A stretch of 64,000 nt of DNA from Elusimicrobiales bacterium. Lineage in GTDB: Bacteria > Elusimicrobiota > Elusimicrobia > Elusimicrobiales > UBA9959. The stretch spans positions 3,152 through 67,151 of the forward strand of contig JAMPXK010000006.1 in the NCBI GenBank assembly GCA_023701245.1, read 5' to 3'. A model generated the notes under the pieces. That model saw nothing but the letters and a program-made list of their open reading frames with translations. It made no database searches and was not told where the DNA came from. The translations under genes and the position numbers were made by a program. Below are positions 3,283 through 58,528 of this stretch, in pieces. Numbering within the stretch: position 1 is the first letter of the stretch; each line of letters begins with the position of its first letter.

Positions 3283-3369
3283 GCCTGACTCCTTAAAGTG
3301 CCGCCGCGATTTTTTATATTTAACAACTTATTATATTATAATGGCAAGACAGCAGGCTGTTAACCAGGA

Positions 3370-3503
3370 GCGGGTGGCGAGGGGGTGCCTTCAGAAGGCC
3401 CTCACGGAGGCCCGAGCTTGCGCAGCGCGAGGGCCGAGTGAGGAGGGGCGGGCACGGTGTGTCCCGACCCCGTGCCTGAGGAAGGCACCCCCTCGCCACC
3501 CGC
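3370..3503. repeat. Type-1 nested-hairpin intergenic element, copy A
   Basis: Perfect 23-bp inverted arms (3370-3392 gcgggtggcgagggggtgccttc / 3481-3503) enclose a core shared with copies at 9896-10023 and 53788-53942. Confidence 0.9.
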
Positions 3504-3532
3504 GAACCTGCAAGCCTGTCGCTGGAGAATTT

Positions 3533-4348
3533 ATGCATAAGGTACATATCGACCACCGGGCGGGCATGATCAAAGAGAACATGGCGCGCATAAAGCGCAA
3601 GATCCTGGTGATGAGCAACAAGGGCGGCGTGGGCAAGAGCACCGTGGCGGTGAACTTCGCGGCCCTGCTGGCCAAAGCCGGCCAGCGCACCGGCCTGCTC
3701 GACATAGACATCCACGGCCCCTCCGCCGCCCGCATGACCGGCATGGAGGGCAAGGCCCACGCCACCGACGGCGCGCTGATAGAGCCGCTGCAGGCCGCCC
3801 CCAACCTCAAAATGATCTCCATGGGCTCGGTGCTGAGCGCCGCCGACACGCCCGTAGTCTGGCGCGGGCCGCTCAAGCTCGGAGTCCTCAAACAGTTCCT
3901 CTCCGACGTGAAATGGGGCGACCTGGACGCGCTTATAATCGACGCCCCCCCCGGCACCGGCGACGAACCGCTGACCATCTGCCAGCTGATCCCCGAAATG
4001 ACCGGCGCCGTGGTGGTCACCACCGGGCAGCAGGTGGCGCTGCTGGATTCCCGCAAGGCGGTAAATTTCCTCAAGACCCTCGGCATCCCGGTACTGGGCA
4101 TCCTGGAGAACATGACGGCTTTCCATTGCCCCCATTGCTCCAAAGAAGTGAACCTCTTCAAGACCGGCGGCGGCGCGCAGGCCGCCCGCGAACTGGGCGT
4201 GCCGTTCCTGGGCTCGGTGCCGTTCGCCCCGGCCATGGTGGACGCCGGCGACGAGGGCCGTTTTTTTGCCGTGGAACGCCCGGAGGCGCCGCCTTCCGCC
4301 GCGCTAGCGCGCGCGCTCGGTAAGACGCTCGAGGGGATATTGAAGTGA
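3533..4348 (+). CDS. apbC: Mrp/ApbC/NBP35-family Fe-S cluster carrier ATPase
   Basis: Deviant Walker A SNKGGVGKST; CPHC motif (AFHCPHCSKE). The ORF-track start at 3125 is rejected because it reads through the repeat element. ATG 3533 is chosen, ATG 3566 is also possible. Confidence 0.8.
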   Translation: MHKVHIDHRAGMIKENMARIKRKILVMSNKGGVGKSTVAVNFAALLAKAGQRTGLLDIDIHGPSAARMTGMEGKAHATDGALIEPLQAAPNLKMISMGSVLSAADTPVVWRGPLKLGVLKQFLSDVKWGDLDALIIDAPPGTGDEPLTICQLIPEMTGAVVVTTGQQVALLDSRKAVNFLKTLGIPVLGILENMTAFHCPHCSKEVNLFKTGGGAQAARELGVPFLGSVPFAPAMVDAGDEGRFFAVERPEAPPSAALARALGKTLEGILK

Positions 4349-6318: not shown

Positions 6319-8630
6319 TAAAGCGCCTCGAACTGGAAGATTTCGGCAAGTTCCGCAAAACCTCCCTGGTCTTCGGGCCTTTCACGCTGGTGACCGGCCC
6401 CAACGAGGCAGGCAAGACCACCGTTTTCGACGCGCTCTTCGACGCGCTTTGCGCCGGGTCCAAGCACGAAGGGCGGCCGCTCTGGAAGAACATGGCCGCC
6501 CGTTACGGGGCCATCCGCCGGTCCTCCGTCGTCTGGGAGGACGGTTTCGCTCCGCTGCAATTCGGCGACAACGAGTTCCTTGAGATCTTCGCTATCCGCG
6601 GCGGGGAACTTTCCGTAAAGCACCCCGAGAATAAAGGGGCGTCCTCCTGGGCGGAAGCGGCGGAGAACGCGCTGCTTAATTCCGGGCTCAACCCGGCCCG
6701 GCTGGCCGCCGGTCTCAGGGACAAGGCGGAAAGCGCGCGCAAAGGTTCCATCCAGGCCAGGCTGCACCGTTTGAAAGAGGCCATAACGGACAAGGGGCCC
6801 ATGATAGCGGCGCTCCGGTCGGAGCGCGACGCCGTGCTGGCCGGAGCCCAAACCGCCGCCGGGCTCGCGGCCGAGCGGGAGCGCCGCGCCGCCGCCCTGG
6901 AATTGAAAAATTCCGAACTGGCGCAGTTGGGCGCTAAGGTGGAAGAACTCTCCTCCGCGGCCCGCCTGGCCGCCGCCATAGAGGGCATAAATACGCTGCG
7001 GGACCTGAAGGAAGCCAGGGAGGAGGCGGCCGCCCTGGCGGCCTACGCTTCCAGCGAGCTGCCGGCCTACCGGGCCTTGAAACATACCCAGTCCGAAATG
7101 GAGAAGGCAGAGGCTTCCGCGGCCGCGGCCCTGGCCGAAAAACGCTCCGCGCTCGACGCGGCGCAGAAGGCCGCCGCCGAACTTTCCGCTAAAGCCGGCC
7201 AGCTGCAGCCTCGCGGCGAAATGGCCCTGGTCCTGGCCGACAAACTGGCGGCTTTCGCGGCCGAGCCCGGCAAAGTCACCCGCGTGCTGAATACCCGGCT
7301 CCGTTTCGGCCTCTGGGCGGGCGGCCTGGCGCTTGCGGCGCTGGTGGCGTACTCGGGCGCCGGTGCCGTGGCCTACGCGGCCGCGGCCGCTATCCTGGGC
7401 GCGGCCGGCTGGGCCGGGTTCAAACTCGCTTTTACCCAGACCATGGTTCCCCGCGGTCCGGGTGAGGAAGCCGCTTTCCTGGCCGGCGTGGCCGCCACCT
7501 GGTCCACGGTCTGCGAGGCCCCCCTCCCTAAGCAGGGCGTGGAAGACGCCCGCAACTACCTGGCCCGGGCCAGGGCGGACCAGGAAGCCGCGGCCGAGGC
7601 CGCCGAGGCCAAGGTTTCCGAAGTGGAATTCCTGATAGCTTCGGCCAGTTCGGCGGAGGCCGACCTGGAGGACCGGGCGCGCAGGGCCCGCAAGGCGGCC
7701 GCCGAGGCCGACAAGTGGCTGAAGGCCCGCGCCTGCGCGACCGAGGACGAATACCAGGCGAAGCTGGCCGAGTATAAAGCCCGCGCGGCCCGCTGCGCCG
7801 ATATGGAACAGCGCCTGGCGGTGTTCCTGCGCCGCAACAATTGCTCCGCCGAGAAAGAGCTGAAGGATAAACTGCATACCGAGAAAGAATCCATAGAGCG
7901 GCGCGGGATCGGTCCCGAACAGGCGAACGGGCCCGAACTGGAACGCCTCAAGCACGCGCAGGCCCTGCTGGCGCAGGAAGTCAGGGAACTGGAAGCGGCG
8001 CTCAACAAGGTCGCTTCCGAACTTGAGACGGCCAAGGCCGTTTCCGGGGTGCGCCTCGGCGGCCTGCCGGAAAGAATAAACCTGGCCGAGACGGAACTGG
8101 AAGCGGAGAAGGCGGAACTGGCGGAACTGGAACTGCAGGCGCAGGCCTGCCTGCTCGCCGCCGGGGTTTTCGACCGCCTTGGCGAGAGCTCGCTGCTGGC
8201 TTTCGAGGAACTCGGCAAGGAAGTTTCCTCCGTGCTGCAGGCGGTGCTGCCGGCGGCAAGCGCTGAATTCAGGGTTTTTGAAGCGGCGGGAGCGGCGGTT
8301 ACGGACGCCACCGGCCTGCGCCGGCCCGTGCGGAACCTTTCTTCGGGCACGCGCGACCTTTTTATGCTGGCCGCGCGCCTGGCCATAGCCAGGCGCTCAC
8401 GCCTGGGCCAGGCCGGCCCCGCGCCGGCGCTGCTGCTGCTGGACGAACCTTTTTATACGCTGGACCAGGCGCGGACGCGCCTGGCACTGCTGCTGCTGGC
8501 CGCCTTCCACAAGAACACCGGCTGGCAGATCATAATCCTTACCAAGGACCCTGGCGTCGCCGCCGAAGCCGCCCGCCTGGACGGGGTCAAGGCGACGGAA
8601 GTGGCCCTCGAACCTCCCAAGCCGCTCTAA
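6315..8630 (+). CDS. SMC/Rad50-like AAA ATPase with membrane-spanning apex (YhaN/SbcE-like)
   Basis: Walker A GPNEAGKTT, signature LSSGTRD, Walker B LLLLDEP, and long Ala/Glu-rich coiled coils. Two hydrophobic helices sit mid-protein (LWAGGLALAALVAY...AAGWAGFKLAF) where Rad50 has its hook. Confidence 0.75.
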   Translation: MIKRLELEDFGKFRKTSLVFGPFTLVTGPNEAGKTTVFDALFDALCAGSKHEGRPLWKNMAARYGAIRRSSVVWEDGFAPLQFGDNEFLEIFAIRGGELSVKHPENKGASSWAEAAENALLNSGLNPARLAAGLRDKAESARKGSIQARLHRLKEAITDKGPMIAALRSERDAVLAGAQTAAGLAAERERRAAALELKNSELAQLGAKVEELSSAARLAAAIEGINTLRDLKEAREEAAALAAYASSELPAYRALKHTQSEMEKAEASAAAALAEKRSALDAAQKAAAELSAKAGQLQPRGEMALVLADKLAAFAAEPGKVTRVLNTRLRFGLWAGGLALAALVAYSGAGAVAYAAAAAILGAAGWAGFKLAFTQTMVPRGPGEEAAFLAGVAATWSTVCEAPLPKQGVEDARNYLARARADQEAAAEAAEAKVSEVEFLIASASSAEADLEDRARRARKAAAEADKWLKARACATEDEYQAKLAEYKARAARCADMEQRLAVFLRRNNCSAEKELKDKLHTEKESIERRGIGPEQANGPELERLKHAQALLAQEVRELEAALNKVASELETAKAVSGVRLGGLPERINLAETELEAEKAELAELELQAQACLLAAGVFDRLGESSLLAFEELGKEVSSVLQAVLPAASAEFRVFEAAGAAVTDATGLRRPVRNLSSGTRDLFMLAARLAIARRSRLGQAGPAPALLLLDEPFYTLDQARTRLALLLLAAFHKNTGWQIIILTKDPGVAAEAARLDGVKATEVALEPPKPL

Positions 8631-9877
8631 ACCGCCGCCCGCCGGGCCAGCCGGTAGGCGGCCAGGGCCTCCGGGAACGGCGACAAGACCCGCTCCAGCA
8701 CTCCCTTGCATTCCGAGATCGCGGTGCCGTAATTGGTTATGGGGATCCCGGCCGCCGCGGCCCGGCCCATGCGGTTGAGTATCTCCGCGCGGTTGAGCAT
8801 GCAGCCGCCGCACTGGATGGCCAGCTTGTAATCCCCCAGTCCGCCCGGCAGGTCGTGCCCGGCGAAAGTGTCTATCTTCAACTCCCCCCCGGCGGTTTCC
8901 TTAAGCCAGCGCGGCAGCTTTACTCGGCCGATGTCGTCCTCTATGGCATGGTGGCTGCAGGCTTCCAGGACGGCCACCCGGTCTCCGGGCCGCAGGCCGC
9001 GTATGGCGGCGGCCCCGGCGGCGTAGGCGGACAGGTCCCCTTTAAAACGGGCGAACAGGATGGAAAAAGTGGTGCAGGGCACGCCGGGCGGCGTGTGCTT
9101 GACCATGAAGTCCACCACCTGGGAATCGCAGACCACCAGCGCCGGCGGCTCTTTGAGGGCGTCCAGGGCCCGGAGGTATTCGTGCTCGCGGCAGACCAGC
9201 GGCAGGGCGCCGTGGTCCAGCAGGTCGCGCATGGCCTGGACCTGCGGCAATATTATGCGGCCCTTGGGGGCTTCTTTGTCTATGGGGATGATGAACACCG
9301 CGGTCTGGCCGGGTTTTACCAGGTCTCCCAGTATGACGGCCGGGGCGCCGGCCGGCGGCGCGCCGAGGCGCAGCAGGCGTTCTTTCACGGCGGCCACGGC
9401 GGCCTCACGGCGGGTCTTATCCACGGCGGAGCAGAGGATGGGGGCTATGCCGCGGCCGGCCAGGGCGGCGGAGAGTTCCGGGGCGGGCGCGGCGATATCG
9501 GTCTTGTTGACCAGGACGATAACGGGAATGCGCTTTTCGGCGGCGGCCGCCAGGATCTCCTCTTCGCAGTCGCCCCAGCCGGCGGGTTCGGCTACCAGCA
9601 GGGCCACGTCGGCGCGGTCGAAGATGCGGCGGGCGCGTTCTTTGCGGAGTTCGCCCAGGCGGCTGTTGTCGTCGAGGCCGGCGGTGTCGAGGAAGACCAC
9701 GGGACCGACGGGCAGGAGTTCCATGCTCTTCTCCACCACGTCGGTGGTGGTGCCGGGGACCGGCGAGGTAATGGCTACGTCCTGGCCGGCCAGCATATTG
9801 AGCACGCTGGACTTGCCGACGTTGGTGCGGCCGAAGATGGCGATCTGGAGTCTCATCGATTTAGGCGTGCTGTTCAT
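8627..9877 (-). CDS. hydF: [FeFe] hydrogenase maturase GTPase HydF
   Basis: G1 GRTNVGKSS, G3 DTAG, NKTD. C-terminal EACSHH...QCGGC cluster motif. Start moved to ATG 9877 (MNSTPKS, GGAAAGGA SD); the longer ORF reads through repeat copy B. Confidence 0.88.
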   Translation of the reverse strand: MNSTPKSMRLQIAIFGRTNVGKSSVLNMLAGQDVAITSPVPGTTTDVVEKSMELLPVGPVVFLDTAGLDDNSRLGELRKERARRIFDRADVALLVAEPAGWGDCEEEILAAAAEKRIPVIVLVNKTDIAAPAPELSAALAGRGIAPILCSAVDKTRREAAVAAVKERLLRLGAPPAGAPAVILGDLVKPGQTAVFIIPIDKEAPKGRIILPQVQAMRDLLDHGALPLVCREHEYLRALDALKEPPALVVCDSQVVDFMVKHTPPGVPCTTFSILFARFKGDLSAYAAGAAAIRGLRPGDRVAVLEACSHHAIEDDIGRVKLPRWLKETAGGELKIDTFAGHDLPGGLGDYKLAIQCGGCMLNRAEILNRMGRAAAAGIPITNYGTAISECKGVLERVLSPFPEALAAYRLARRAAV

Positions 9878-9895
9878 AGTAGTCCTTTCCTCGGG

Positions 9896-10023
9896 TCCGG
9901 CGGGGGTATGGGGTCTGAAGGCCCTCTCGGAGGCCGAGGCTTGCGTAAGCGACGAGGCCGAGTGAGGAGCGGCGCGAACGGTGTTCGCGACCGCGTGCCT
10001 GAGGACCCCATACCCCCGCCGGA
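9896..10023. repeat. Type-1 nested-hairpin intergenic element, copy B
   Basis: Perfect 20-bp arms (9896-9915 tccggcgggggtatggggtc / 10004-10023) around the conserved core. Lies between the hydE stop and the hydF start. Confidence 0.9.
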
Positions 10024-10029
10024 ACCCCT

Positions 10030-11022
10030 TTATGCCCGCTTCAAACTGTGGCCGAAACCTTCGGCGCGCTGCCGGCCCAGGGAGGCCAGCATGGCGTCCA
10101 CGCAGCCGGCGCACTGCTCCGGCTGTTCTCCGGTGCAGATCTTGCCGGGGTACAGGCTGTAGTCGGCGCGGTTCTCCATGGGGCTGATGTTGGGCATCAG
10201 CACGTTGGCGCCGCAGCCCAGGGCCTTCTGCCTCCCCCTGGGGTCCAGGGTGCCCATGGCGGTGGTGGCCGGGATATGGGTGTTCTTGGTGACGATGCGG
10301 GTCAGCGCCACCATGCGCAGGGCGGCGTCGAGCGTGCCGCAGTCGGCCCCGGCCATGGGGGTTTCGGGGCTGGCGATGAACGGGCCTATGCCCACCATGT
10401 CCAGGTCCAGCTTCTTGAAGAGGAGGATGTCGTCGGCCATGCTTTCCAGGCTCTGGCCGGGCAGGCCGGCCATTACGCCGGACCCTACCTGGAACCCGGC
10501 ATCCTTGAGGCGCGCCAGACAGGCGAAACGCCTGTCGTAATCCGAGTCCGGCTTGAGCATGCTGAAAAGGCGCCGGTCGGAGGTTTCGAAGCGCAGCAGG
10601 AAACGGTCGGCCCCGGCGGCGCGCAGCAGCCTGTACTCTTCGGCGGAGTACTCCCCTACGGAAAGGGTGATGGCCAGGCCGGTCTCGGTCTTTACTTTTT
10701 CCACTACGGCGGCCAGCTCCCTGGGCCCGTAATGGGGGTCTTCGCCGGACTGCATCACCACGGTTTGGTACTTCAGGCGGACGGCGGTGCGGGCGCAGTC
10801 CAGTATCTGCGCCGGGCTCAGGCGGTAGCGGCGCACTTTGGCGTTGCCGGCCCTTATGCCGCAGTAGTAGCAGCGGCGGCGGCAGTAGTTGGAGAACTCT
10901 ATGAGGCCGCGCAGGTGTACGCCGTCGCCTACCTGCTCGCGGCGCACCTTGTCCGCCAGGGCATAGAGATCCGCCGGATCGCTATCCGGGTTGAGGGCGG
11001 CGATGATCTCATTTTTGTTCAT
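10030..11022 (-). CDS. hydE: [FeFe] hydrogenase maturase HydE (radical SAM)
   Basis: 330-aa ORF. Radical-SAM CRRRCYYCGI (CX3CX2C), BioB-like fold signature, position between hydG and hydF. Confidence 0.88.
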   Translation of the reverse strand: MNKNEIIAALNPDSDPADLYALADKVRREQVGDGVHLRGLIEFSNYCRRRCYYCGIRAGNAKVRRYRLSPAQILDCARTAVRLKYQTVVMQSGEDPHYGPRELAAVVEKVKTETGLAITLSVGEYSAEEYRLLRAAGADRFLLRFETSDRRLFSMLKPDSDYDRRFACLARLKDAGFQVGSGVMAGLPGQSLESMADDILLFKKLDLDMVGIGPFIASPETPMAGADCGTLDAALRMVALTRIVTKNTHIPATTAMGTLDPRGRQKALGCGANVLMPNISPMENRADYSLYPGKICTGEQPEQCAGCVDAMLASLGRQRAEGFGHSLKRA

Positions 11023-11039
11023 ATTTGGCCCGGCCCGGG

Positions 11040-11067
11040 CCCCCCTTCCGCAAAGGGTTCGCGGGGG
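11040..11067. repeat. Partial type-2 element (shares 26 of 27 aligned nt with the 3' part of the 16386-16479 element)
   Basis: cccccc-ttccgcaaagggt-t-cgcggggg here versus ccccccc-ttccgcaaagggt-g-cgcgggg at about 16439-16466. Lies in the 70-nt hydG-hydE gap. Confidence 0.7.
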
Positions 11068-11092
11068 AGCGCCACTGACAGCCCGCTGTTAT

Positions 11093-12571
11093 TCAGAAGC
11101 ATAGGTCCCGCTCGCCGCCTTCTATCCTTTTGTAGTAGGTTTCCAAAAGCTTCAGGGTCTCCGGAGGGAAATGCGCTCCGCGGTCGCGGATCTCGTTGAT
11201 CTCGCGGCGGATCAGCGCTTCGCCTTTGGCCCTGGTGGCTTCGGAGGCGAAGTCGTCGAGCCATTCGCGGTAGGTGAGCACGGCGTTGAGCTTGCAGAAG
11301 CGGCTTTCATGCCCGCTCTTGAGCAGTTTCATGATGTGGTCGCCGGTGCGGCCGCAGCGGTAGCCGGAGGCGCAGAAGGAGGTGATGTGGCCCAGGTCGG
11401 CCAGCTCGCCTATCACCTCGTCGAGGGAGCGGGTGTCGCCCAGGATGAACTGCTGTTTCTCGGCTTCCTGCGCGCCGGCGCGCTCGGAGTAGGCGCCTAT
11501 GCCTATGCGGGTGCTGGCGTCGCGCTGGGTGCACATGCCTATGACCTCGCGGATGGTCTCCGGGCGCTCGCGGGCGGTGACTATCATGCCGGCGTAGGGG
11601 ACGGCCAGGCGCAGTACGGCCACCAGCTTCTTGAAATCGGCGTCGGAAACGTTGCGGAGGCTGGCCTCGGGCAGGCTGGTGCCGTCGGCGTTCTCCAGGC
11701 GCGGGAAAGAGATGGTATGCGGGCCGACGCCGAAGCGCGCTTCCAGTTCGCGCGCGTGCGCTACCAGGCCCAGCACTTCGAATTTCCAGTCGGGGTTGAG
11801 GCCGAAGAGGGCGCCCAGGGCCACGTCGTCTATGCCGGCGGCGAAGGCCCGGTGCATGACGTAGAGGCGCCAGCGGTAGTCGGCTTTGGGGGTGCCGCCG
11901 GGATGAAGTCTGGCGTAGAGCTCCCGGTCGTAGGTTTCCTGGAAGACCTGGTAGGTGCCGAGGCCGGCGGCCTTGAGCAGCTTCAGGTCCTCGACGTTCA
12001 TGGGGGCGGCGTTGACGTTGACGCGGCGTATCTGGCCGAAGCCCTTGCGGGTGGGCACTTTGACGGCGTAGATGGTCTTCATGGCCTCGGCTATGTACTG
12101 CGCGCCGGTGGCGGGATGTTCGCCGGTGACGAAGATGAGGCGCTTATGGCCTATGCGCCCGGCGAGGGCTTCGGCCTCGGACCGGATCTCTTCCATGGAG
12201 AGTTTGCGGCGCACGGCCCCGGCGTTGCCGGTGCGGAAGCCGCAGTAGAGGCAGTTGTTGACGCAGAAGTTGGAGGCGTAGAGCGGGGCGAAGGTGATGA
12301 CGCGGTTGTCGTAGACCTTGCGCTTGACATCGCGGGCGGCCTGGTAGATCTCTTCGAGCAGGCCGGGGTCGGTGACGGCCAGGAGCGCCGCGGCGTCTTC
12401 GGGCGGGAGGGCCTCGGAGACGGCGAGCGAACGGGCGAGGATCTCGCGGACGCGGTCGGCCGAAGGGGCCGGGGCGGCGAGCGCCGCTTTCAGCGCTTTA
12501 TCGTCTATGAAGTCTTTGCCGTCTTTGAGGTAGTCTGCGTAGGTGTCTGCGTTAACGGTCACGGTTTGCAT
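11093..12571 (-). CDS. hydG: [FeFe] hydrogenase maturase HydG (radical SAM tyrosine lyase)
   Basis: Radical-SAM CVNNCLYCGF, ThiH-like body, C-terminal Cys triad. Start moved to ATG 12571 (MQTVTVN, GGAGA SD); the longer ORF reads into repeat element F. Confidence 0.88.
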   Translation of the reverse strand: MQTVTVNADTYADYLKDGKDFIDDKALKAALAAPAPSADRVREILARSLAVSEALPPEDAAALLAVTDPGLLEEIYQAARDVKRKVYDNRVITFAPLYASNFCVNNCLYCGFRTGNAGAVRRKLSMEEIRSEAEALAGRIGHKRLIFVTGEHPATGAQYIAEAMKTIYAVKVPTRKGFGQIRRVNVNAAPMNVEDLKLLKAAGLGTYQVFQETYDRELYARLHPGGTPKADYRWRLYVMHRAFAAGIDDVALGALFGLNPDWKFEVLGLVAHARELEARFGVGPHTISFPRLENADGTSLPEASLRNVSDADFKKLVAVLRLAVPYAGMIVTARERPETIREVIGMCTQRDASTRIGIGAYSERAGAQEAEKQQFILGDTRSLDEVIGELADLGHITSFCASGYRCGRTGDHIMKLLKSGHESRFCKLNAVLTYREWLDDFASEATRAKGEALIRREINEIRDRGAHFPPETLKLLETYYKRIEGGERDLCF

Positions 12572-12597
12572 AAGGTCTCCTTGGTTCGGGGCCGCCA

Positions 12598-12698
12598 GGG
12601 TGTTACCCTGGGCCCCACACCCGGGGAACCGTTGCGCGGTTCCCCCGTCCCTTACGGGACGGGTCCCCCTCCCCAAGTGGGGCGTGCGGGTAACACCC
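12598..12698. repeat. Type-2 nested-hairpin intergenic element (copy F)
   Basis: Outer stems GGGTGTTACCC/GGGTAACACCC and GCCCCAC/GTGGGGC enclose hairpins GGGGAACC[gttgcgc]GGTTCCCC and CGTCCC[ttac]GGGACG. Confidence 0.85.
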
Positions 12699-12720
12699 CG
12701 CCGTCCCCTCCAAACAGCGC

Positions 12721-13896
12721 CTAGTGCACGGCTTCGGTTGCGACCGGCACCGGCGCGTCCTTGAGCGTCAGCTCGAAGGAGGTCCCTTCACCGTACTTGG
12801 ACTGCACTTTTACGTCGCCGCCGTAAAGCTTTACCACTTTCTTGAGTATGGACAGGCCGAGGCCGCTGCCGTCGATGTTGCGGGTGTGCTCGTTCTTCAT
12901 GCGCACGAATTCCCCGAACAGTTTGGCGAGCTCCTGCTCCGTCATGCCTATGCCGGTGTCCGAGCAGCGTATGGCTACGGCGCCGTCCTGGCGGGCCAGT
13001 TCGAGGACCGCCCGGCCGCCTTCGCGGTTGTACTTGACGGCGTTGGTCAGCAGGTTGGACAGGACCATGTCCACTTCGCCCGGGTCGGCCGTCATCAGCA
13101 GCTGCGCCGGGGCTTTGAGCTCCACCGTGACTTTTTTGGCTTCGGCCAGGGCGGCGATGTTCTCCAGTATGAGCCCGGCGGTCTTTACCAGGTCCACCTG
13201 TTCTATGGCGCGCCGTTTTTTGCCGGATTCCAGGCGGGTAAGGTCCAGCAGGTCCATGACGAGTTTTCTCATGCCGCCTATGCGGGTGACGCTGCGGTCC
13301 ACCATGGCGTCGTAGGCGGCCAGCTCGGGGCCTTTCAGGCGCTCTTTCATGAGGTGCATGTAGCCTTCCACCGCGGCCAGCGGGCTCTTGAGCTCGTGCG
13401 CGAGGACCGAGATGAATTCGAAACGCACCTGGCGCTTCTCGTCCTCCAGCTTTTTGGCCTTGCGCTGCAGGTAGACGCTGCGCGCGGCCTTGGAGATGGT
13501 GGCGCGGAGTTCTTCCGGAGTAAAGGGCTTGGCCAGGAAGTCGAAAGCCCCGCGCTTGGTGGCGGTGACCGCCACTTCCAGCGAGGCGAAGGCCGTTATC
13601 ATGATGGTCAGGAAATCCCCCGCCCCCGGGGCGGCTGCCAGCACGTCTATGCCGGTCATGTCCGGCAGTTTATAGTCCAGGAGCAGGATGTCCGGGCTCT
13701 TGGCTTTCAGCGCGGCCAGGGCTTCGTCGCCGGTGGAGGCGCTGCGCACGGCGAAGGTGACGGTCTCGCTGAAGTCGGGCAGGGGCACGCTGAAGCCTTC
13801 CAGGGAGCGTTCCGCCCCCGCGCGCATGCCGGCCTCGTCGTCGACGATGAGTACGTCCAGCTGGTGGACGGGCAGGGGGTCAGGCATGACGCTCAC
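12721..13896 (-). CDS. Hybrid response-regulator receiver / histidine kinase (REC-HisKA-HATPase_c)
   Basis: N-terminal REC (VLIVDDE...LLLDYKLPDMTG), H-box SVLAHELKSPL, and N/G boxes (LTNAVKYN, DTGIGM, GSGLGLS). No transmembrane or DNA-binding region. Confidence 0.85.
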   Translation of the reverse strand: MSVMPDPLPVHQLDVLIVDDEAGMRAGAERSLEGFSVPLPDFSETVTFAVRSASTGDEALAALKAKSPDILLLDYKLPDMTGIDVLAAAPGAGDFLTIMITAFASLEVAVTATKRGAFDFLAKPFTPEELRATISKAARSVYLQRKAKKLEDEKRQVRFEFISVLAHELKSPLAAVEGYMHLMKERLKGPELAAYDAMVDRSVTRIGGMRKLVMDLLDLTRLESGKKRRAIEQVDLVKTAGLILENIAALAEAKKVTVELKAPAQLLMTADPGEVDMVLSNLLTNAVKYNREGGRAVLELARQDGAVAIRCSDTGIGMTEQELAKLFGEFVRMKNEHTRNIDGSGLGLSILKKVVKLYGGDVKVQSKYGEGTSFELTLKDAPVPVATEAVH

Positions 13897-14290
13897 CCGC
13901 GCCCATAAGGCGCTTAAGTTCGCTCTTGAGCTGCTCGAAGCGCAGTTCCTTGTGGATTATGGCGTCGGCCTTTATCCAGGTCTTGGGGTCATGGGCCTTG
14001 TCGAAGTAGAAGCCGGTCTCCTTGGTGACCGAGGTCACGATGACCACCGGGATACTGGGGTCCATCTTCTTTATCTTGTGGCTCAGCACGAAGCCGGAAT
14101 CGGGGTTCTCCATCATCAGGTCCAGGACGGCGGCCTTGAAATTGCCGGGCCGGATGAGAGGCTCGGCCTCTTTCTGGGTGGAGGCGCTGACCACTTCGTA
14201 GTCTTCGCTTTCGAGGTAGATCTTCATCTGTTCCATCATATCCGGGTCGTCTTCCACTACCAGGATCTTTATTTTGTTCTTGTCGGTCAT
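13880..14290 (-). CDS. Single-domain response regulator (REC only)
   Basis: 136-aa ORF with ILVVEDD and AAVLDLMM receiver motifs and no output domain. Overlaps the downstream REC-HK gene by 17 nt. Confidence 0.85.
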   Translation of the reverse strand: MTDKNKIKILVVEDDPDMMEQMKIYLESEDYEVVSASTQKEAEPLIRPGNFKAAVLDLMMENPDSGFVLSHKIKKMDPSIPVVIVTSVTKETGFYFDKAHDPKTWIKADAIIHKELRFEQLKSELKRLMGAGERHA

Positions 14291-14314
14291 AGTATTCTCC
14301 TGTCGCCGCTTAGA

Positions 14315-16348
14315 TCATTTGCCCGCGGTCTCCGCTTTCATCTTGATCGCCCCGGCGTCGCGCGCCACGCGGGGCAGTTTTACCGTAAAGGTGGTGCCCG
14401 TCGGGCCCTTGGCCGGGTCGGAGTTGCTCTCTACCGCGATGCTGCCGCGGTGCACTTTGATGATGCCGTAAGAGACCGCCAGCCCCAGGCCGGTCCCCTT
14501 GCCTATCTGCTTGGTGGTGAAGAAAGGCTCGAAGATCTTCTTGGCATTCTCCGGCTTTATGCCGCAGCCGGTGTCCGAAACGCTGAAGCAGACGCTTTCG
14601 CGCTCGGGGAAGGTGCGGATGGTGAGCGCGCCGGCGCCGCCCATGGCTTCCAGGGCGTTGGTCACCAGGTTGGTAAGCACCTGGATTATCTGGTCGGGGT
14701 CCATCTCGGCCTGCAGGTCCTCGCCGGAGCGGTCCACGGTCAGCTTCAGCGTGGCCGGGACCGACGCCGTCTTGAAATAGTTGTCGATGAGGCGTACCAG
14801 GCTGGTCTGGCGGAAGAACGGCTTGTTCTTGCGGGCGAAGTTGAGCAGCCCGCCCACGATCTTCTTGCAACGGTCGGCCTGCTCGGTTATCATCTTGGCG
14901 TCGGCGAAGACGCGGGTGTCCTTCTGGCACTGTTCGGCCAGCAGGTGGGCGTAGAGCAGCACCACGCCGAGCGGGTTGTTGAGCTCATGGGCCACTCCGG
15001 CGGCCAGCTGGCCCATGCTGGCGAGCTTTTCCGACTGCATCAGGGCCTGCTTGGTCTTGGCCAGCTGGTTGTAGGAGACCGTCAGTTCGTCGGCGGTGGT
15101 CTTGAGCCGGTCTATGGTGTAGGGGAGGCACATTTCGCTTTCGGCTATGCCGCGGATGATGGCCACGGCGTGCTCCACGCAGGTGGGGTAGCCGCAGGCG
15201 CCGCAGTTCAGTTCGTCCTCCGGCCTGGTCTTGCCCATCTTGGCCAGGACGGCCTTGAGCTCCTCGCCGGCCGGCAGTTTCATGCGCCGGTCCTCGGCTT
15301 CGAAGGAGGCGCCGTAGTTCAGGCCGCGGAAGCGGCGCACGCTCTCTTCCCAGTCGTTGAGGCGGATGCTGAAATAGCTTTTGCGGGCGTAGCGGCGCAG
15401 GGCGGCCTCGCGCGCGTGCTTGGAGGACTTTACGCTGATGCCGGGGCCCATGATGCAGCCGTTGCAGCAGAGCAGGTCTATGAAATCGGCGTCGATGTCT
15501 CCGTGCTCCATGTTCTTGAGCACTTCCGGGAAGTTCTCCAGCCCTTCCGAAGAGAGGAAGCGGCCGCTCAGCAGGTCCTCTTCGAGTTCGGCGGAGTTGA
15601 GCAGGCCGCCGCCCATGGGGTAGAGCACGCCCTTGGCGGGATGCGGCGGGTCGAACTGGGCGTCCAGGGCGCTGTTGCGGTCCACGCCGGCGTCCTTGAG
15701 GATGGTGCGCAGCTCCACGAAGGTTATGGATTCCGCTATGTCGGCCAGGTTGCGGGCGGTCTCTTCCTTCTTGGCCACGCACGGCCCGATGAAGACCACT
15801 TTTACTTCGGGACCGTACATGTCGTGTATGACCCGGGCCTCGGCCACCATGGGGGAGACTATGGGCGCGAGGCTGCCCACCAGGGCCGGGTGGTATTTTT
15901 CCACGAAGGAGACCACTGCGGGGCAGGCGGTGCTGATGAATTTTTTGCCGGGGTTCTCGTTGATGAGCTTGCGGTACTGCAGGGAGACCATGTCCGCGCC
16001 GAAGGCCACTTCGCAGACATGTTTGAAGCCGAGGGCCTTTAACATGCCGGCGAACCGCAGGGGGTCTATCCCGCCGAATTCAACGGGGAAACTTGGGGCC
16101 AGGGCGGCGGCGACGGGCGCGCCGCTCTTGAGGAGGGCTTTTACGGCGCGGATGGAGTCCAGGGTCTCTTTGGCGCCGCGGCTGCACATGAGCACGCAGT
16201 TGGCGCAGCCTATGCAGCGCTCCTTTATGACCTCGGCCTGGCCGCCGGAGATGCGGATGGCCTTGGCGGGGCAGCCGCGCACGCAGGTATAGCACGCCTT
16301 GCAGCGTTCTTTGATGGTCCTTACTAGTGGCTCGCTATCGGGTGTCAT
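14315..16348 (-). CDS. Sensory [FeFe]-hydrogenase-like protein fused to a histidine kinase
   Basis: Contains a 2x[4Fe-4S] ferredoxin motif. The H-cluster-domain motifs are altered: STACP, GPCVAKKEE, LLCCNGCIMGPG. A CX2CX4CX16C motif (CGACGYPTC...C) follows, then H-box VAHELNNPL and HATPase_c. Start set to ATG 16348 (MTPDSEP). Confidence 0.85.
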   Translation of the reverse strand: MTPDSEPLVRTIKERCKACYTCVRGCPAKAIRISGGQAEVIKERCIGCANCVLMCSRGAKETLDSIRAVKALLKSGAPVAAALAPSFPVEFGGIDPLRFAGMLKALGFKHVCEVAFGADMVSLQYRKLINENPGKKFISTACPAVVSFVEKYHPALVGSLAPIVSPMVAEARVIHDMYGPEVKVVFIGPCVAKKEETARNLADIAESITFVELRTILKDAGVDRNSALDAQFDPPHPAKGVLYPMGGGLLNSAELEEDLLSGRFLSSEGLENFPEVLKNMEHGDIDADFIDLLCCNGCIMGPGISVKSSKHAREAALRRYARKSYFSIRLNDWEESVRRFRGLNYGASFEAEDRRMKLPAGEELKAVLAKMGKTRPEDELNCGACGYPTCVEHAVAIIRGIAESEMCLPYTIDRLKTTADELTVSYNQLAKTKQALMQSEKLASMGQLAAGVAHELNNPLGVVLLYAHLLAEQCQKDTRVFADAKMITEQADRCKKIVGGLLNFARKNKPFFRQTSLVRLIDNYFKTASVPATLKLTVDRSGEDLQAEMDPDQIIQVLTNLVTNALEAMGGAGALTIRTFPERESVCFSVSDTGCGIKPENAKKIFEPFFTTKQIGKGTGLGLAVSYGIIKVHRGSIAVESNSDPAKGPTGTTFTVKLPRVARDAGAIKMKAETAGK

Positions 16349-16385
16349 AATCGTTGTCTGACTTAAGTCCTGAGCTATTAGTGGC

Positions 16386-16479
16386 GCCCGGGATATTGCC
16401 CCACGCACCCTGGAAGATGGAAACCCTTGCGTCGGTTTCCCCCCCTTCCGCAAAGGGTGCGCGGGGCAATATCCCGGGC
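16386..16479. repeat. Type-2 nested-hairpin intergenic element (copy D)
   Basis: 25-bp arms with one mismatch (16386-16410 / 16455-16479) enclose GGAAACC[cttgcgtc]GGTTTCC and CCCTT[ccgca]AAGGG hairpins. Lies between the hydA stop and the sensor-kinase start. Confidence 0.88.
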
Positions 16480-16492
16480 ACCCTTCTGCTGT

Positions 16493-18217
16493 CTACGTTA
16501 GGTCCGCCGCCTTGCGCCTGGCGTACTTAGTGTGCAGGAGGTGGTGGCTCTTCTCGCCGAGGGGCTTGCCGAGGAAGTCCTTGTAGAGGGCCTGCACGGC
16601 CTTGTTGGCGTGCGAGGTGCGGATCTTCTCGGAGGCGTCGATATTGTACAGGGCGCGCATGCGCTCGGCTACGGCGGCCTTGTTGCGGGCGAAGGGCTGG
16701 CCGCCGCCGTTGATGCAGCCGCCGGGGCAGGTCATGATCTCTATGAAGTGGAGGTCCTTCCTGCCGTTCTTGATCTCTTCCAGCAGTTTGCGGGCGTTGC
16801 CCAGGCCGCTGACGGCCGCTACCCCGGCTTCCAGGGCGCCGATCTTGAGGCGGGCTTCCTTGATGCCGTTCTGGCCGCGCACGGCTTCCACCTTGAGGGT
16901 GCCCAGTTCCTTGCCGGTGAGCAGGTAATGGGCGGTGCGCAGGGCGGCTTCCATGACGCCGCCGGAGGCGCCGAAGATCTTGCCGGCGGTGCTGCGGTCC
17001 CCGAAGGGCATATCCGGCTCTTCGGGCTGCAGGGTCTTAAGGTCTATGCCGTAAATGCGCAGCAGCTGGGCCAGTTCGCGCGTGGTCACCACCGCGTCGA
17101 TGTCGGGGGTGCCGTCGCGGCCCATCTCGGGGCGGGTCACTTCGAATTTCTTGGCGGTGCAGGGCATGACCGAGACGCTGTACATCCTGGCCGGGTCGAG
17201 CCCCTGCTTTTTGGCGTAGTAGGTCTTGATCATGGCTCCCAGCATCTGCTGCGGGCTCTTGCAGGTGGAGAGGTTGGGCAGCAGTTCGGGATAGAAGGTC
17301 TCCACGAACTTTATCCACCCGGGCGAGCAGGAGGTGAACATGGGCAGCGGGCCGCCGGTCTTTATGCGGTGCGCCAGTTCGCTGGCCTCCTCCATGATGG
17401 TCAGGTCGGCCGCGAAGGAGGTGTCGAAGACGGCCTTGAAGCCCATCTTGCGGAAAGCCGCGGTCATGACGCCGTTGACGTCGGTGCCGGCGGGCAGGCC
17501 GAACTCCTCGGCGAGGGACACGGAGATGGACGGGGCGTGCTGCACCACCACGTGCAGTTTCTTGTCGGAGAGGGCTTCCATGACCGCCTGGATGTCGCTC
17601 TTCTCCATCAGGGCGCCGGTGGGGCAGACGTTGATGCACTGCCCGCAGTTGACGCAGGAGGAGACGTTGAGGCTGGAGTCGAAAGCGCAGCCGATGGAGG
17701 TGTCCGAGCCGCGCTTTACGAAGTCTATGCAGGAGACGCCCTGCACCTCCTCGCAGACGCGCACGCACTTGCCGCAGAGAATGCACTTGTCGGGGTCGCG
17801 GGAGATGGAGGGGCTGGAAATATCCAGGGGCTTCTTCTTCTTGGCCACGGGGAAGCGGCGGCCGGTCACGCCGTAGTCGCGGCTGAGGCGGTTAAGCTCG
17901 CAGGTGGGCTGCTTGGCGCAGTAGAGGCAGTCGTCGGGATGAGAACCCAGCAGCAGTTCCACCACGGTCTTGCGGGCGTTTATGACGCGCGGGCTGTTGG
18001 TGAGGATCTTCATCCCCTCGGCCGCCGGGAAAGAGCAGCTGGGCAGGAGGTTGCCCTGGCCTTCCGCTTCTACCACGCAGATGCGGCAGGCGCCGGAGGG
18101 CAGCATGCCTTCCATGTGGCAGAGGGTGGGCACATGCACGCCTTCGCGGCGCAGCACGGTGAGCAGGGTTTCCCCCGCCTGGGCTTCTACGGTCTTTCCG
18201 TTCACGGTGAGTTTCAT
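16493..18217 (-). CDS. hydA: [FeFe] hydrogenase catalytic subunit (HydA/HndD type, multi-cluster N-terminus)
   Basis: N-terminal 2Fe-2S, HX3CX2CX5C and 2x[4Fe-4S] motifs. H-cluster motifs MPCTAKKFE and EIMTCPGGCINGGGQP are canonical, but motif 1 reads TSCSPGW. Confidence 0.88.
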   Translation of the reverse strand: MKLTVNGKTVEAQAGETLLTVLRREGVHVPTLCHMEGMLPSGACRICVVEAEGQGNLLPSCSFPAAEGMKILTNSPRVINARKTVVELLLGSHPDDCLYCAKQPTCELNRLSRDYGVTGRRFPVAKKKKPLDISSPSISRDPDKCILCGKCVRVCEEVQGVSCIDFVKRGSDTSIGCAFDSSLNVSSCVNCGQCINVCPTGALMEKSDIQAVMEALSDKKLHVVVQHAPSISVSLAEEFGLPAGTDVNGVMTAAFRKMGFKAVFDTSFAADLTIMEEASELAHRIKTGGPLPMFTSCSPGWIKFVETFYPELLPNLSTCKSPQQMLGAMIKTYYAKKQGLDPARMYSVSVMPCTAKKFEVTRPEMGRDGTPDIDAVVTTRELAQLLRIYGIDLKTLQPEEPDMPFGDRSTAGKIFGASGGVMEAALRTAHYLLTGKELGTLKVEAVRGQNGIKEARLKIGALEAGVAAVSGLGNARKLLEEIKNGRKDLHFIEIMTCPGGCINGGGQPFARNKAAVAERMRALYNIDASEKIRTSHANKAVQALYKDFLGKPLGEKSHHLLHTKYARRKAADLT

Positions 18218-18227
18218 GGTGGTATCC

Positions 18228-20189
18228 TCAAGCGGCGCTGACGGCCTTGAATTTGCAGACGGTCCTGCAGGAACCGCAGGAAATGCACTTCTCGGCTATG
18301 ATGTAGTGGGGCACTTTGGGCTTGCCCACTATGGCCTGCGTGGGGCAGCCTTTCATGCAGAGCGTGCAGCCTTTGCACTTTTCCGCGTCTATGGAGAATT
18401 CCAGCATCTCGGTGCAGGCGCCGGCGGGGCACTTGCGCTCGAAGATGTGGGCTTCGTATTCGTCGCGGAACCAGCGCAGGGTGCTGAGCACCGGGTTGGG
18501 GGCGCTCTGCCCCAGGCCGCACAGGCTGGTCTCGCGGATGACCTGGCTCAAGTCCTCCAGGTTCATGATGCCTGAGAAGCGGGCCAGGGCGTCGGCGTCC
18601 TTTTCGCCGCGGCGGTGGCGGGTGATGGCTTTCAGGATCTCCAGCATGCGCAGCGTGCCTTCGCGGCAGGGAATGCACTTGCCGCAGCTCTCGCGCTTTA
18701 TGAAGTCCATGAAGTACTTGGCCACGTCCACCATGCAGGTTGTCTCGTCCATGACCACGAGGCCGCCGGACCCCATCATGGCGCCCACGGTCTTGAGGGA
18801 CTCGTAGTCCACCTGGATGGTCATGTGGCTCTGGGGGATGCAGCCGCCCGACGGGCCGCCTATCTGCACGGCCTTGAACCCCAGGCCGTTCTCTATGCCG
18901 CCGCCTATGTCGAAGACGATCTCTTTGAGCGTGGTGCCCATCGGGATCTCCACCAGACCGGTGCGGTTGACCTTGCCGGAGAGGGCGAAGACCTTGGTGC
19001 CTTTGGACCCCTTGGTGCCGATGGCGGCGAAGGCCGCCGGGCCCTGCGAAATTATCTCGGGGACATTGGCGAAGGTCTCCACGTTGTTGATGACGGTGGG
19101 CTTGCCGAACAGCCCCTTTACCGCCGGGTACGGCGGGCGCGGCTTGGGCATGCCCCGCCGGCCTTCTATGCTGTTCATCAGCGCGGTTTCCTCTCCGCAG
19201 ACGAAGGCGCCCGCGCCCATCTTTATGATGACGTCCAGGTCGAAGCCGCTGCCGTAGATGTTCTCTCCCAGCAGGCCGTAGGCCTTGGCGTCCGCTATGG
19301 CTTTTTTCAGGTTCTTGATGGCCAGCGGGTACTCCGCGCGGATATAGATGTACGCCTTGGAGGCGTGGATGGCGTAGGCGCCGATGGCGATGCCTTCCAG
19401 CACGCGGTGCGGGTCGCCCTCTATGACGGAGCGGTCCATGAAGGCGCCGGGGTCCCCCTCGTCGGCGTTGCAGATGATGTATTTCTGGTCGGCGTCGGAG
19501 GAAAGGGCTATCTTCCATTTCTTGCCGGTCGGGAAACCGCCGCCGCCGCGGCCGCGCAGGCCGCTGGCCTCTATCACGTCGCAGGCCTGGATCGGCGTCA
19601 TGGTGTGGATCACCTTCAGGAAAGCCCCGTAGCCGCCTCGGGCGATATGTTCCTGTATGGAGAGCGGGTCCACTATGCCCACGTGCTTGAGCACGAAGCG
19701 CAGCTGTTTGGCGAAAAAGGGATGGTCGCTGAGCAGCGGGACTTTGGGCCACTTCTTGCCCCCGTCCTCGAATTGGCCGAGCAGGTGCTCCTTGAGAGGG
19801 GCCCTGTCCTTGAAGACGGAATCCAGGAGGGCCGGGGTTATGTCGCCGGTGGCGGCCTGGAAGCCTACCCTCGCGTGGCCCGGCAGCTGTACGTCCAGCA
19901 GGGGCTCGGCGGCGCAGAGGCCGATGCAGCCCACCTCCAGGATATCAGCTTCCAGCTTGTTGTCCTTCAGGTATTTCCTGGCCGCTTCCAGGGTCTTTGC
20001 GGCGCCGGCGGCCAGGCCGCAGGTGCCGGCTCCCACGTAGATTATGGCGCGCTCGGCGCTCTCGCGGCGCAGAGCCGCGGCCTTTTGGGCGTAATCCTCC
20101 GAGCCGAAGGCGCGGGTGAGAAAAGCCTTGCGGGCGGAGGCCGGGATCCCGGCGAGATTGTTGTCTATTAAACCGTTATTTTGCGGCAT
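18228..20189 (-). CDS. hydB: NuoF-like flavoprotein subunit of bifurcating-type hydrogenase (HydB/HndC)
   Basis: 653 aa. GLRGRGGGGFPTGKKW (FMN/NADH site), SCGKCIPCREG (N3-type cluster), C-terminal 2x[4Fe-4S] (CKGCTLCMKGCP, CISCGSCRTVC), N-terminal thioredoxin-like Cys pattern. Confidence 0.88.
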   Translation of the reverse strand: MPQNNGLIDNNLAGIPASARKAFLTRAFGSEDYAQKAAALRRESAERAIIYVGAGTCGLAAGAAKTLEAARKYLKDNKLEADILEVGCIGLCAAEPLLDVQLPGHARVGFQAATGDITPALLDSVFKDRAPLKEHLLGQFEDGGKKWPKVPLLSDHPFFAKQLRFVLKHVGIVDPLSIQEHIARGGYGAFLKVIHTMTPIQACDVIEASGLRGRGGGGFPTGKKWKIALSSDADQKYIICNADEGDPGAFMDRSVIEGDPHRVLEGIAIGAYAIHASKAYIYIRAEYPLAIKNLKKAIADAKAYGLLGENIYGSGFDLDVIIKMGAGAFVCGEETALMNSIEGRRGMPKPRPPYPAVKGLFGKPTVINNVETFANVPEIISQGPAAFAAIGTKGSKGTKVFALSGKVNRTGLVEIPMGTTLKEIVFDIGGGIENGLGFKAVQIGGPSGGCIPQSHMTIQVDYESLKTVGAMMGSGGLVVMDETTCMVDVAKYFMDFIKRESCGKCIPCREGTLRMLEILKAITRHRRGEKDADALARFSGIMNLEDLSQVIRETSLCGLGQSAPNPVLSTLRWFRDEYEAHIFERKCPAGACTEMLEFSIDAEKCKGCTLCMKGCPTQAIVGKPKVPHYIIAEKCISCGSCRTVCKFKAVSAA

Positions 20190-43079: not shown

Positions 43080-43097
43080 CGCCCGGCGCCAAGGCGC

Positions 43098-43130
43098 AAA
43101 AAAGCCCCGGGACCTCCCGGGGCTTTTTTT
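43098..43130. terminator. Bidirectional Rho-independent terminator
   Basis: AAAAAA-GCCCCGGG-acct-CCCGGGGC-TTTTTTT between convergent genes ending at 43079 (+) and 43144 (-). Confidence 0.8.
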
Positions 43131-43143
43131 GGGCTCGGGCGGC

Positions 43144-52413: not shown

Positions 52414-52452
52414 TAAAAAGAAAAGGCCGCCAGTCAGGCGGCCTTTTCTTTT
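52414..52452. terminator. Bidirectional Rho-independent terminator
   Basis: AAAAGGCCGCC-agtca-GGCGGCCTTTT with A-rich and T-rich flanks, between convergent genes ending at 52401 (+) and 52467 (-). Confidence 0.8.
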
Positions 52453-58520: not shown

Positions 58521-58528
58521 TTCACCCT

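Follow-up and report, generated by a model that had tools for sequence, protein, structure and literature searches.

A high-copy family of structured, mobile intergenic repeats in Elusimicrobia

Introduction

What are the three long hairpins that stand between genes in a 64,000-nucleotide (nt) stretch of contig JAMPXK010000006.1, from an Elusimicrobiales bacterium, and how do their shapes persist as their letters change? This stretch, at its full length, is called the window below. The original prediction, drawn from the window's sequence alone, described three intergenic loci in the same orientation that share a core, and took their conserved loops and the compensatory changes in their stems as marks of a secondary structure under selection. 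The three loci (copies A, B, and C) are where they had been placed, all on the + strand, with a common core of about 95 nt. They lie 6.4 and 43.8 kb apart amid housekeeping genes.

Here, we ask how large the family is, what it folds into, which strand folds, whether it moves, and where it settles, before weighing what it might be. Sequences from relatives were fetched as 118 loci, from about 20 Elusimicrobia metagenome-assembled genomes (MAGs) and from metagenomes, and are named L followed by a number.

How large is the family?

A 23-nt core pattern, GTGAGGAGNGGCGNNNACGGTGT, is found at 78 loci in the species-representative genome collection and also in 43 metagenome contigs. The 78 loci belong to Elusimicrobia/Elusimicrobiales MAGs or unclassified bins, bar one from Streptomyces (L013), which we set aside as a chance pattern match; the rest of the element is missing there. 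A covariance model (R1) built from 61 copies recovered 111 copies in the genome-collection loci and 52 in the metagenome loci, and an nhmmer census counted 161 distinct copies in the 118 loci. In the window itself, a covariance model from 61 relatives, run with filters off, found exactly these three copies in 64 kb (E = 4e-38, 3e-34, and 5e-25), and gave one further, weak match at 16374-16488, which is a long hairpin of another kind. Units measure 130-165 nt, and the host genomes are GC-rich Elusimicrobia in which the density is roughly one copy per 20 kb.

Searches elsewhere were negative. Viral contigs held no match to the pattern, and phages and plasmids no similar sequence; blastn against 5,426 Escherichia coli genomes gave no match to the element, which has no similarity by sequence to ERIC or REP-BIME. 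With Rfam release 15 at the gathering threshold there were 0 matches in the window and 10 loci, and at E up to 10 only miRNA-type hairpin matches far under threshold, in agreement with the earlier view that this is not a named RNA family. A tRNA/tmRNA scan of the window found none, and a literature search on Elusimicrobia repeats found no description. As far as these tools can tell, the repeat is a previously undescribed, high-copy, non-coding, mobile family.

What does the element fold into?

RNAalifold on a MAFFT alignment of 61 sequences gives 37 pairs, 22 of them with compensatory changes. When the alignment is widened to 111 copies, 96.8% of cells are paired and 31 of the 37 pairs show changes on both sides, amounting to 613 such cells; none of 500 shuffles was as good, and sliding the 3' partner by 1-3 columns as a control lowers pairing to 33-45% of cells. 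The proposal of a selected secondary structure is thus borne out for the whole family. On both strands, the three window copies have fold z-scores between -8.7 and -12, which none of their shuffles equals.

The outermost layer of the fold is a closing helix with a median of 28 pairs. Inside it there is a short helix that alternates among AGGC/GCCU, AAAAC/GUUUU, and GGGC/GCCC, and then a three-way junction. The stem of hairpin 1 consists, in order, of CCUCAC/GUGAGG, a bulged G with tandem G.A pairs, GGCC/GGCC (or tandem G.A again), GC/GC, a UU bulge, and GC/GC, and its terminal loop is GUAA, GCAA, GAAA, or a GNA triloop. Hairpin 2 is GGGGCG.../...CGaCCCC with an invariant tip, AC-GGT-GT. Its covariation had been read correctly from the three copies and extends to the family, where pairs 89/102 and 90/101 exchange GC and CG in 15 and 24 of 61 sequences.

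Hairpin 1 needs more revision. The complementarities quoted for it exist, but the pairing assignment was wrong: the partner first given to its 5' strand, CGCGAGGG, keeps its pairing in just 68% of cells family-wide, against 93-100% for CCTCAC/GTGAGG with GGCC/GGCC, and is a real alternative solely in the CCTTCGC subfamily, that of copy C. Because the second pairing is better kept, what had been taken for a conserved 18-nt loop is itself a helix with a GNRA or GNA cap. The junction and the loops, with the motifs GTGAGGAG, ACGGTGT, and GCTTGCG, make up the sequence-specific part of the core; the stems need only pair and therefore drift through compensatory change.

Some copies carry hairpins nested inside hairpins. 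A mini-hairpin module of about 24 nt (GGTGGAGCGAAGCGACACC or GGTGGCCGAAGGCCAC) takes up three positions across copies, namely between hairpins 1 and 2, within hairpin 1, and within hairpin 2; relatives of the module in copy C are found in L004, L005, L038, L012, L067, and L032. At L061:6792-7100 a multi-hairpin insertion of about 160 nt sits in hairpin 2 and is missing from the nearly identical locus L096.

Two known motifs were considered and rejected by inspection. A hammerhead was suggested by copies A and B, which read CUGAGGA by the stem, but the family has CUGACGG, CCGACGG, or UUUGCG there and junction strands of 0-2 nt. A K-turn in hairpin 1 does not fit a loop of 3 x 2 nt instead of 5 x 2.

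Which strand folds?

One strand alone, the + strand of the window, is selected to fold. On it, G.U pairs number 125 and A.C mismatches 23 (58 and 7 in the arms), with the remaining mismatches mostly purine-purine, and this G.U excess is present whichever way the neighboring genes run relative to the element. Of 99 copies, 97 have their more stable fold on the + strand; the advantage is 10.7 kcal/mol under RNA parameters and 5.5 under DNA parameters. The tandem G.A pairs, too, are on the + strand, as are the loops c(GNA)g and c(GNRA)g and the helix end GGAG/CGAC, which in two subfamilies consists of G-C, G.A, A.G, and G-C. Triloops of the c(GNA)g kind and GCGAAGC are typical of very stable DNA mini-hairpins, and GNRA loops are frequent in RNA, so the loops do not discriminate between single-stranded DNA and RNA.

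Does the element move?

The element is mobile, as occupied and empty versions of the same site make plain. Site B is empty in L064, where the spacer between hydE and hydF is 9-15 nt; L064 has its own copy one gene upstream, at a place where the window keeps just a remnant of another repeat, so that the repeat occupies different spacers of the hydG-hydE-hydF operon in the two genomes. Site A is empty in L080, which has a 5' untranslated region (UTR) of 45 nt behind the same TATAAT. L027:6684-6827 is filled, and four other MAGs have 2-10 nt from the stop codon to the next ATG. More such filled and empty pairs are L007 and L036 versus L044, L070 versus L005, and L063 versus L041. Empty sites show no arms, which are hence part of what moves. 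The ideas that a core inserts into existing hairpins, or that arms are copied from the target, were ruled out for copy B and L027, where the empty sites carry 2-15 nt with no arm trace.

The limits of the unit are seen most clearly in L016 and L062, whose copies, on two contigs of one MAG, are 97% identical from (T)GGAGCGGG to CCCGCGAACC between unrelated flanks and without duplication; the ends of copy A were set from this pair. No target-site duplication was found at these junctions or at those of 29 type-i and type-ii copies. In most copies, T or C precedes the unit (position -1), and no other target motif was seen when the junctions were compared. Absence of an open reading frame (ORF), of target-site duplication, and of regular spacing had all been stated earlier and is upheld. 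Doublets also move as a unit: one, including its spacer, recurs at different sites (L026 versus L061/L096).

Between copies at orthologous sites, divergence is 16-20% in the core and 54% in the arms. Copy C and its orthologous counterpart in L068 have different arms (26 of 31 positions differing), and L001(-) and L039(-) have arms that differ at 24 of 31 beside flanks that are 89% identical. Many shared sites hold different copies. An excess of double over single changes at orthologous sites (64 versus 16) was considered as proof of in-place compensatory selection and set aside: the arms diverge by 54-84% beside flanks that are 80-89% identical, and therefore many "orthologous" copies are replacements or re-insertions.

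What are the ends of the unit?

The perfect outer arms reported for copies A, B, and C (23, 20, and 29 bp) were reproduced by an inverted-repeat check, and in copy A they sit within a 30-nt inverted repeat at 90%. Such perfection is at one end of the range, as a perfect arm run of at least 20 bp is found in just 23 of 99 copies. The claim that arms are copy-specific and unrelated did not survive the wider sample. Family-wide they follow a degenerate consensus, GGAG(G/C)GG.GGC(A/G)AGGGTATGGG, and fall into recurring subfamilies with ends conserved across genomes. The first, with many copies over different MAGs, starts with (C)GGAGGGG.GGC.AGGGTATGGG and ends with ...CCCCGAC and a tail, U-NNN-CAUCUCGCGG, that is present in 27 of 145 copies. 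The second, to which copy A belongs, extends from GGAGCGGGTGGCG to CCCGCGAACC, with CAGGCCTG frequently coming next, and the third has the arms TGGCGGAGACC...GGGCAGGGTTAGCAAAA. Copies B and C both have CCGGC..GG.TATGG in their arms, which are diverged versions of the first (GGAG) consensus. The subfamily ends are non-palindromic, with GGAG... at the 5' side and ...GAC-UNNN-CAUCUCGCGG or ...CGAACC at the 3' side, and are not inverted copies of one another.

A single case among 145 copies departs from this layout. At L064:1588-1729 the outer arms and the CATCTCGCGG tail are on the strand opposite to the core. The core is thus inverted relative to the arms that enclose it, as though recombination between the two arms had turned it around.

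Where do copies settle?

Copies are intergenic, with at most one overlapping a called gene, and most of them stand directly beside a stop codon. Given in the orientation of the element, the flanking genes run (-,-) in 34 cases, (+,-) in 22, (+,+) in 19, and (-,+) in 7. A stop codon lies within 40 nt of the 3' (right) end of 40 copies and of the 5' (left) end of 15 (p = 0.001, orthologs included); about a quarter of stop-adjacent copies are in the other orientation. Neighboring genes of a particular kind were not found, as clustering 578 flanking proteins yields just orthologs and signaling domains.

Most copies are solitary. Where two of opposite strand are adjacent, the arrangement is (-)(+) in 19 cases and (+)(-) in 1, so that the 5' ends face each other, and the partners are usually of different arm subfamilies. 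All five (-)(+) pairs that stand 0.4-1 kb apart (Table 1) enclose DNA whose GC content is low (0.40-0.46, compared with 0.57-0.62 for the locus). Within each pair there is a single small accessory ORF, encoding an Mrr-like restriction endonuclease, a HEAT-repeat lipoprotein, a MORN-repeat protein, or a membrane protein, and each such ORF is followed by a sense-oriented element, in a layout resembling a gene cassette. The genes between (+)(-) pairs are ordinary.

Signals for transcription were looked for as well. Upstream -10-like hexamers are not enriched, with 25 of 95 on the + strand and 27 of 95 on the opposite strand, and no T-run follows either end of the element (0 sites), as an intrinsic terminator would have. 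The window does contain canonical bidirectional intrinsic terminators at 43089-43138 and 52416-52452, GC hairpins flanked by an A-run and a T-run, so the organism uses ordinary terminators.

The three copies in the window

Coordinates are collected in Table 1. Copy A has the orientation of the ParA/Mrp-like gene at 3533-4348 and stands in its 5' UTR, 3' of a promoter-like site at 3313-3342. The neighbors of copy B are hydE (10030-11022, minus) and hydF (8627-9877, minus); the copy is antisense to this operon, and the hydE stop codon is 3-7 nt from its right end. Copy C is antisense to both of its neighbors, an RNase J-like gene (53970-55373, minus) and a DEAD-box helicase gene (52467-53738, minus). 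The AT skew of the window is negative in 15 of 16 4-kb bins regardless of gene strand and the GC skew is mostly positive, so the + strand looks leading throughout; all three copies have their folding strand on this G- and T-rich strand.

Table 1. Positions of the window copies and their parts, and of widely spaced inverted pairs in relatives
Feature	Position	Strand	Remarks
Copy A, whole unit	3367-3508	+	GGAGCGGG ... CCCGCGAACC subfamily; covariance model 123.9 bits
Copy A, 5' outer arm	3370-3392	+	23 nt, perfect complement of 3481-3503
Copy A, hairpin 1	3400-3443	+	CCTCAC/GTGAGG, GGCCC/GGGCC, tandem G.A, UU bulge, GCA triloop
Copy A, hairpin 2	3445-3471	+	GGGGCGGGCAC-GGT-GTGtCCCGaCCCC
Copy A, 3' outer arm	3481-3503	+	Pairs with 3370-3392
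Copy B, whole unit	9893-10027	+	Covariance model 137.1 bits
Copy B, 5' outer arm	9896-9915	+	20 nt, perfect complement of 10004-10023
Copy B, hairpin 1	9922-9967	+	GUAA (GNRA) loop at 9946-9949
Copy B, hairpin 2	9969-9994	+	GCGGCGCGAAC-GGT-GTTCGCGaCCGC
Copy B, 3' outer arm	10004-10023	+	Pairs with 9896-9915
Copy C, whole unit	53788-53942	+	Covariance model 92.4 bits
Copy C, 5' outer arm	53788-53816	+	29 nt, 100% complementary to 53914-53942
Copy C, hairpin 1 with inserted module	53817-53884	+	CCTTCGC subfamily; alternative pairing CTTCGCGC/GCGCGAAG also possible
Copy C, optional mini-hairpin module	53855-53878	+	GGTGGAGCGAAGCGACACCGCAGT, includes GCGAAGC; not in copies A and B
Copy C, hairpin 2	53886-53911	+	GCGGCGGCCAC-GGT-GTGGCCGaCCGC
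Copy C, 3' outer arm	53914-53942	+	Pairs with 53788-53816
Wide (-)(+) pair	L072:6397-7375		
Wide (-)(+) pair	L029:3579-4440		
Wide (-)(+) pair	L056:4491-5089		
Wide (-)(+) pair	L078:4566-5357		
Wide (-)(+) pair	L054:2352-2784		

The window has 56 genes, called with our own codon-usage caller; Pfam backs most of the calls, and five proteins have no match. The divergent spacer beside copy A (3313-3363) holds overlapping promoter-like sites on both strands, TTTATA-18-TATAAT (+) and TTAACA-17-TATAAT (-). Their TATATTATAATGG core is kept in L080, and a few bases separate the minus-strand -35 hexamer from copy A at its 5' end. Copy B belongs to an FeFe-hydrogenase neighborhood (8627-20661) that comprises hydF, hydE, hydG, a hydrogenase-domain histidine kinase, a hydrogenase large subunit, and NuoF-like and NuoE-like subunits.

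At 16383-16482, between two hydrogenase-like genes, there is another long hairpin repeat of unrelated sequence ("type 2"), with 29-nt arms at 93% and z = -9 to -11; the orthologous sites in L017 and L032 hold copies of the family described here (type 1). The type 2 motif CGC(A/G)ACCCTTTGCGGAAGGGGGG is common to a window remnant at 11040-11061, in the hydG-hydE spacer, and to L079 at about 1838. Elsewhere in the window there are two modules, at 27993-30792 and 57663-60634, that each consist of an ABC substrate-binding protein and a TonB-dependent receptor, and two Endonuclease I paralogs at 56726-57607 and 62134-63021.

What kind of element is it?

We favor, with a probability of about 0.55, the explanation that the copies are a non-coding, non-autonomous mobile repeat of the REP/REPIN/BIME kind, copied via a folded single strand by an enzyme that is encoded elsewhere. 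The + strand folds into a long closing helix bearing the conserved three-way junction, with an irregular hairpin 1 and hairpin 2 as its branches. New copies would be made from this folded single strand, in which single-stranded DNA seems more likely than RNA, and an enzyme encoded elsewhere in the genome would recognize the core; candidates are a RAYT/IS200-like HUH transposase or another structure-specific recombinase. Copying from a folded single strand is the simplest account because strand specificity is independent of the direction of transcription and there is no promoter. Once inserted, a copy would be co-transcribed with its neighbors and, in either orientation, would place a very stable hairpin with a 20-30 bp double-stranded stem in a 3' UTR, an intercistronic spacer, or a 5' UTR, where it probably affects mRNA ends and processing.

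Several observations weigh against this explanation. The 56 window genes include no transposase (none had been seen earlier either), integrase, or reverse transcriptase, and no HUH protein turned up when about 0.64 Mb of loci were searched by tblastn with approximate IS608 TnpA and E. coli RAYT queries. The layout is reversed with respect to REPINs and miniature inverted-repeat transposable elements (MITEs), whose ends are conserved and whose middle is free. In the wider sample, orientation shows no bias to AT/GC skew of the kind that lagging-strand transposition of the IS200/IS605 type predicts, 8-kb loci being a weak test of it. The retention of loops at orthologous sites where stems have changed fits host selection equally well, and a purely selfish model leaves unexplained the orientation bias of about 3:1 relative to the upstream gene.

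These last two points lead to the main rival, which we regard as possible though on the doubtful side. Here, the element would be a host-selected, orientation-specific RNA element, placed with its 3' end at a gene's stop codon. Its + transcript would stop or process antisense transcription that enters the gene from downstream, while transcription of the gene itself would meet the weaker fold of the complementary strand and go through; the antisense transcription would stem from convergent read-through, a divergent promoter, or an acquired gene, and mobility would be secondary. This would account for the orientation rules and the conserved loops. The strand-specific fold is maintained in every gene context, the 40:15 bias at the adjacent stop codon has the expected sense, the convergent-spacer doublets are arranged 19:1 so that each gene is shielded by its own copy, the low-GC accessory ORFs between doublets are each followed by a sense-oriented copy, core loops persist at orthologous sites as stems turn over, and copy A is sense-oriented in a 5' UTR behind a conserved TATAAT. 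However, no U-tract follows the hairpin on either strand in a genome that does have hairpin-plus-T-run terminators, and the stop-adjacent copies of opposite orientation (about a quarter) break the rule. Presence and absence among close relatives, together with 97% identical paralogs, speak of ongoing copying and not of fixed regulatory sites, a turnover that the RNA element leaves unexplained, and GNA triloops closed by C-G, GCGAAGC among them, characterize stable DNA mini-hairpins more than they do RNA. That the copies are small RNA genes standing alone, each under a promoter of its own, would likewise agree with the conserved, + strand-specific structure and its GNRA loops, and is scarcely credible: -10-like hexamers are as frequent on the opposite strand, there is no terminator, the flanks of different copies are unrelated, and copy number and turnover fit a repeat.

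The widely spaced doublets call to mind recombination sites of a cassette-capture system like integron attC, in which a recombinase reads the folded strand and moves small genes between inverted copies. All five pairs enclose low-GC DNA with one small accessory ORF, and a strand-specific fold, sequence-tolerant stems, and absence of target duplication would all suit such sites. We nevertheless think it improbable, since the ends lack RYYYAAC/GTTRRRY, arrays in a single orientation are absent, as is a nearby integrase, most copies stand alone amid housekeeping genes such as hydE/hydF, convergent spacers tolerate foreign genes anyway, and no cassette was seen at two different sites. A slightly broader conjecture, also improbable but a shade less so, would make the three-way-junction core the recognition module of an enzyme acting on folded single strands, with inverted doublets as docking sites that capture small low-GC accessory genes between core genes. 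An alternative conjecture would be an orientation-specific RNA insulator shielding gene 3' ends against antisense transcription. A classical MITE, moved by cut and paste by a DDE transposase that binds terminal inverted repeats, is very unlikely, as the original prediction had held on the ground that MITE termini are conserved. The family is small, non-coding, and palindromic in outline, with many copies and insertion polymorphism, as a MITE would be, but no target-site duplication exists at defined junctions, the arms are the least conserved part (54% differing even at orthologous sites), no related insertion sequence was seen, the subfamily termini are not inverted copies of each other, and strand-specific wobble pairs would be irrelevant for a double-stranded substrate.

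How does it compare with known repeats?

The earlier account had recognized the element as no named repeat or RNA family. Because it is mobile, a point left open there, we place it with the REP/REPIN/BIME- and ERIC-like repeats. The repeats of Proteobacteria known as REP, REPIN, and BIME, which are served by RAYT, a Y1 HUH enzyme, are likewise extragenic, high-copy, GC-rich hairpins found after genes and within operons. They too have no ORF, no target duplication, no terminal inverted repeats past the hairpin, and strand-specific features, and they form inverted doublets as the replicative unit, with heterotypic partners such as the Y and Z REPs of BIMEs. In REPINs, compensatory changes keep the hairpin of the REP doublet, as they do in the Elusimicrobia repeat (PMC3116915). 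The differences are nonetheless considerable. The unit measures 130-165 nt with a 95-nt structured core, whereas a REP has 20-40 nt; the central three-way junction is conserved and the stem variable, the reverse of a REPIN; there is no GTAG-type 5' tetranucleotide, its position being taken by GGAG in two subfamilies and variable in others; no RAYT was found in the window or by tblastn in the fetched loci; and the host phylum is Elusimicrobia.

ERIC (IRU) and Correia/NEMIS elements are also imperfect palindromes of about 100-160 nt in transcribed intergenic DNA, occur in both orientations, and have size variants through internal insertions. In Yersinia, ERIC gives long RNA hairpins that RNase E can process, and in Neisseria, NEMIS is processed by RNase III. 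The present repeat differs in having no TA duplication, no conserved 26-bp terminal repeats, and no similarity to E. coli genomes, and a strand-specific junction with covarying stems is not among the features described for either.

With palindrome-associated elements derived from IS200/IS605 it shares the absence of terminal inverted repeats and target-site duplication, a one-strand hairpin, and short conserved single-stranded tails by the hairpin foot. It has no conserved tetra- or pentanucleotide target (T or C at -1), no separate left and right hairpins, and no lagging-strand template bias. Integron attC sites, again, act as a folded single strand, keep structure over sequence, lie just past stop codons, have a similar length (60-150 nt), and in some cases flank small accessory genes. 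Unlike attC, the repeat has neither R''/R' core sites (RYYYAAC, GTTRRRY) nor arrays, and intI is absent; its ends read GGAG.../...GAC or ...GAAC, the center is conserved in sequence, and copies are scattered amid housekeeping genes.

In our view, the element belongs with the bacterial interspersed palindromic repeats (REP/REPIN/BIME and ERIC/Correia), from which it is set apart by a conserved, strand-specific three-way-junction core within fast-changing stems.

Conclusions

Repeats of the REP/REPIN type are well studied in Proteobacteria alone, and a structured counterpart in Elusimicrobia would widen the range and variety of such repeats. A junction that is conserved while the stems are free to change suggests a partner enzyme that recognizes shape together with a few loop bases, possibly a new system for recognizing single-stranded DNA or RNA. 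Should the cassette explanation be true, an uncultivated phylum would have an integron-like cassette system that lacks both attC and IntI. Copies also stand inside operons, such as copy B between the FeFe hydrogenase maturase genes hydE and hydF, and their presence or absence may alter the expression of metabolic genes between close strains. In addition, the repeat can be used as a lineage marker for MAG binning and strain typing.

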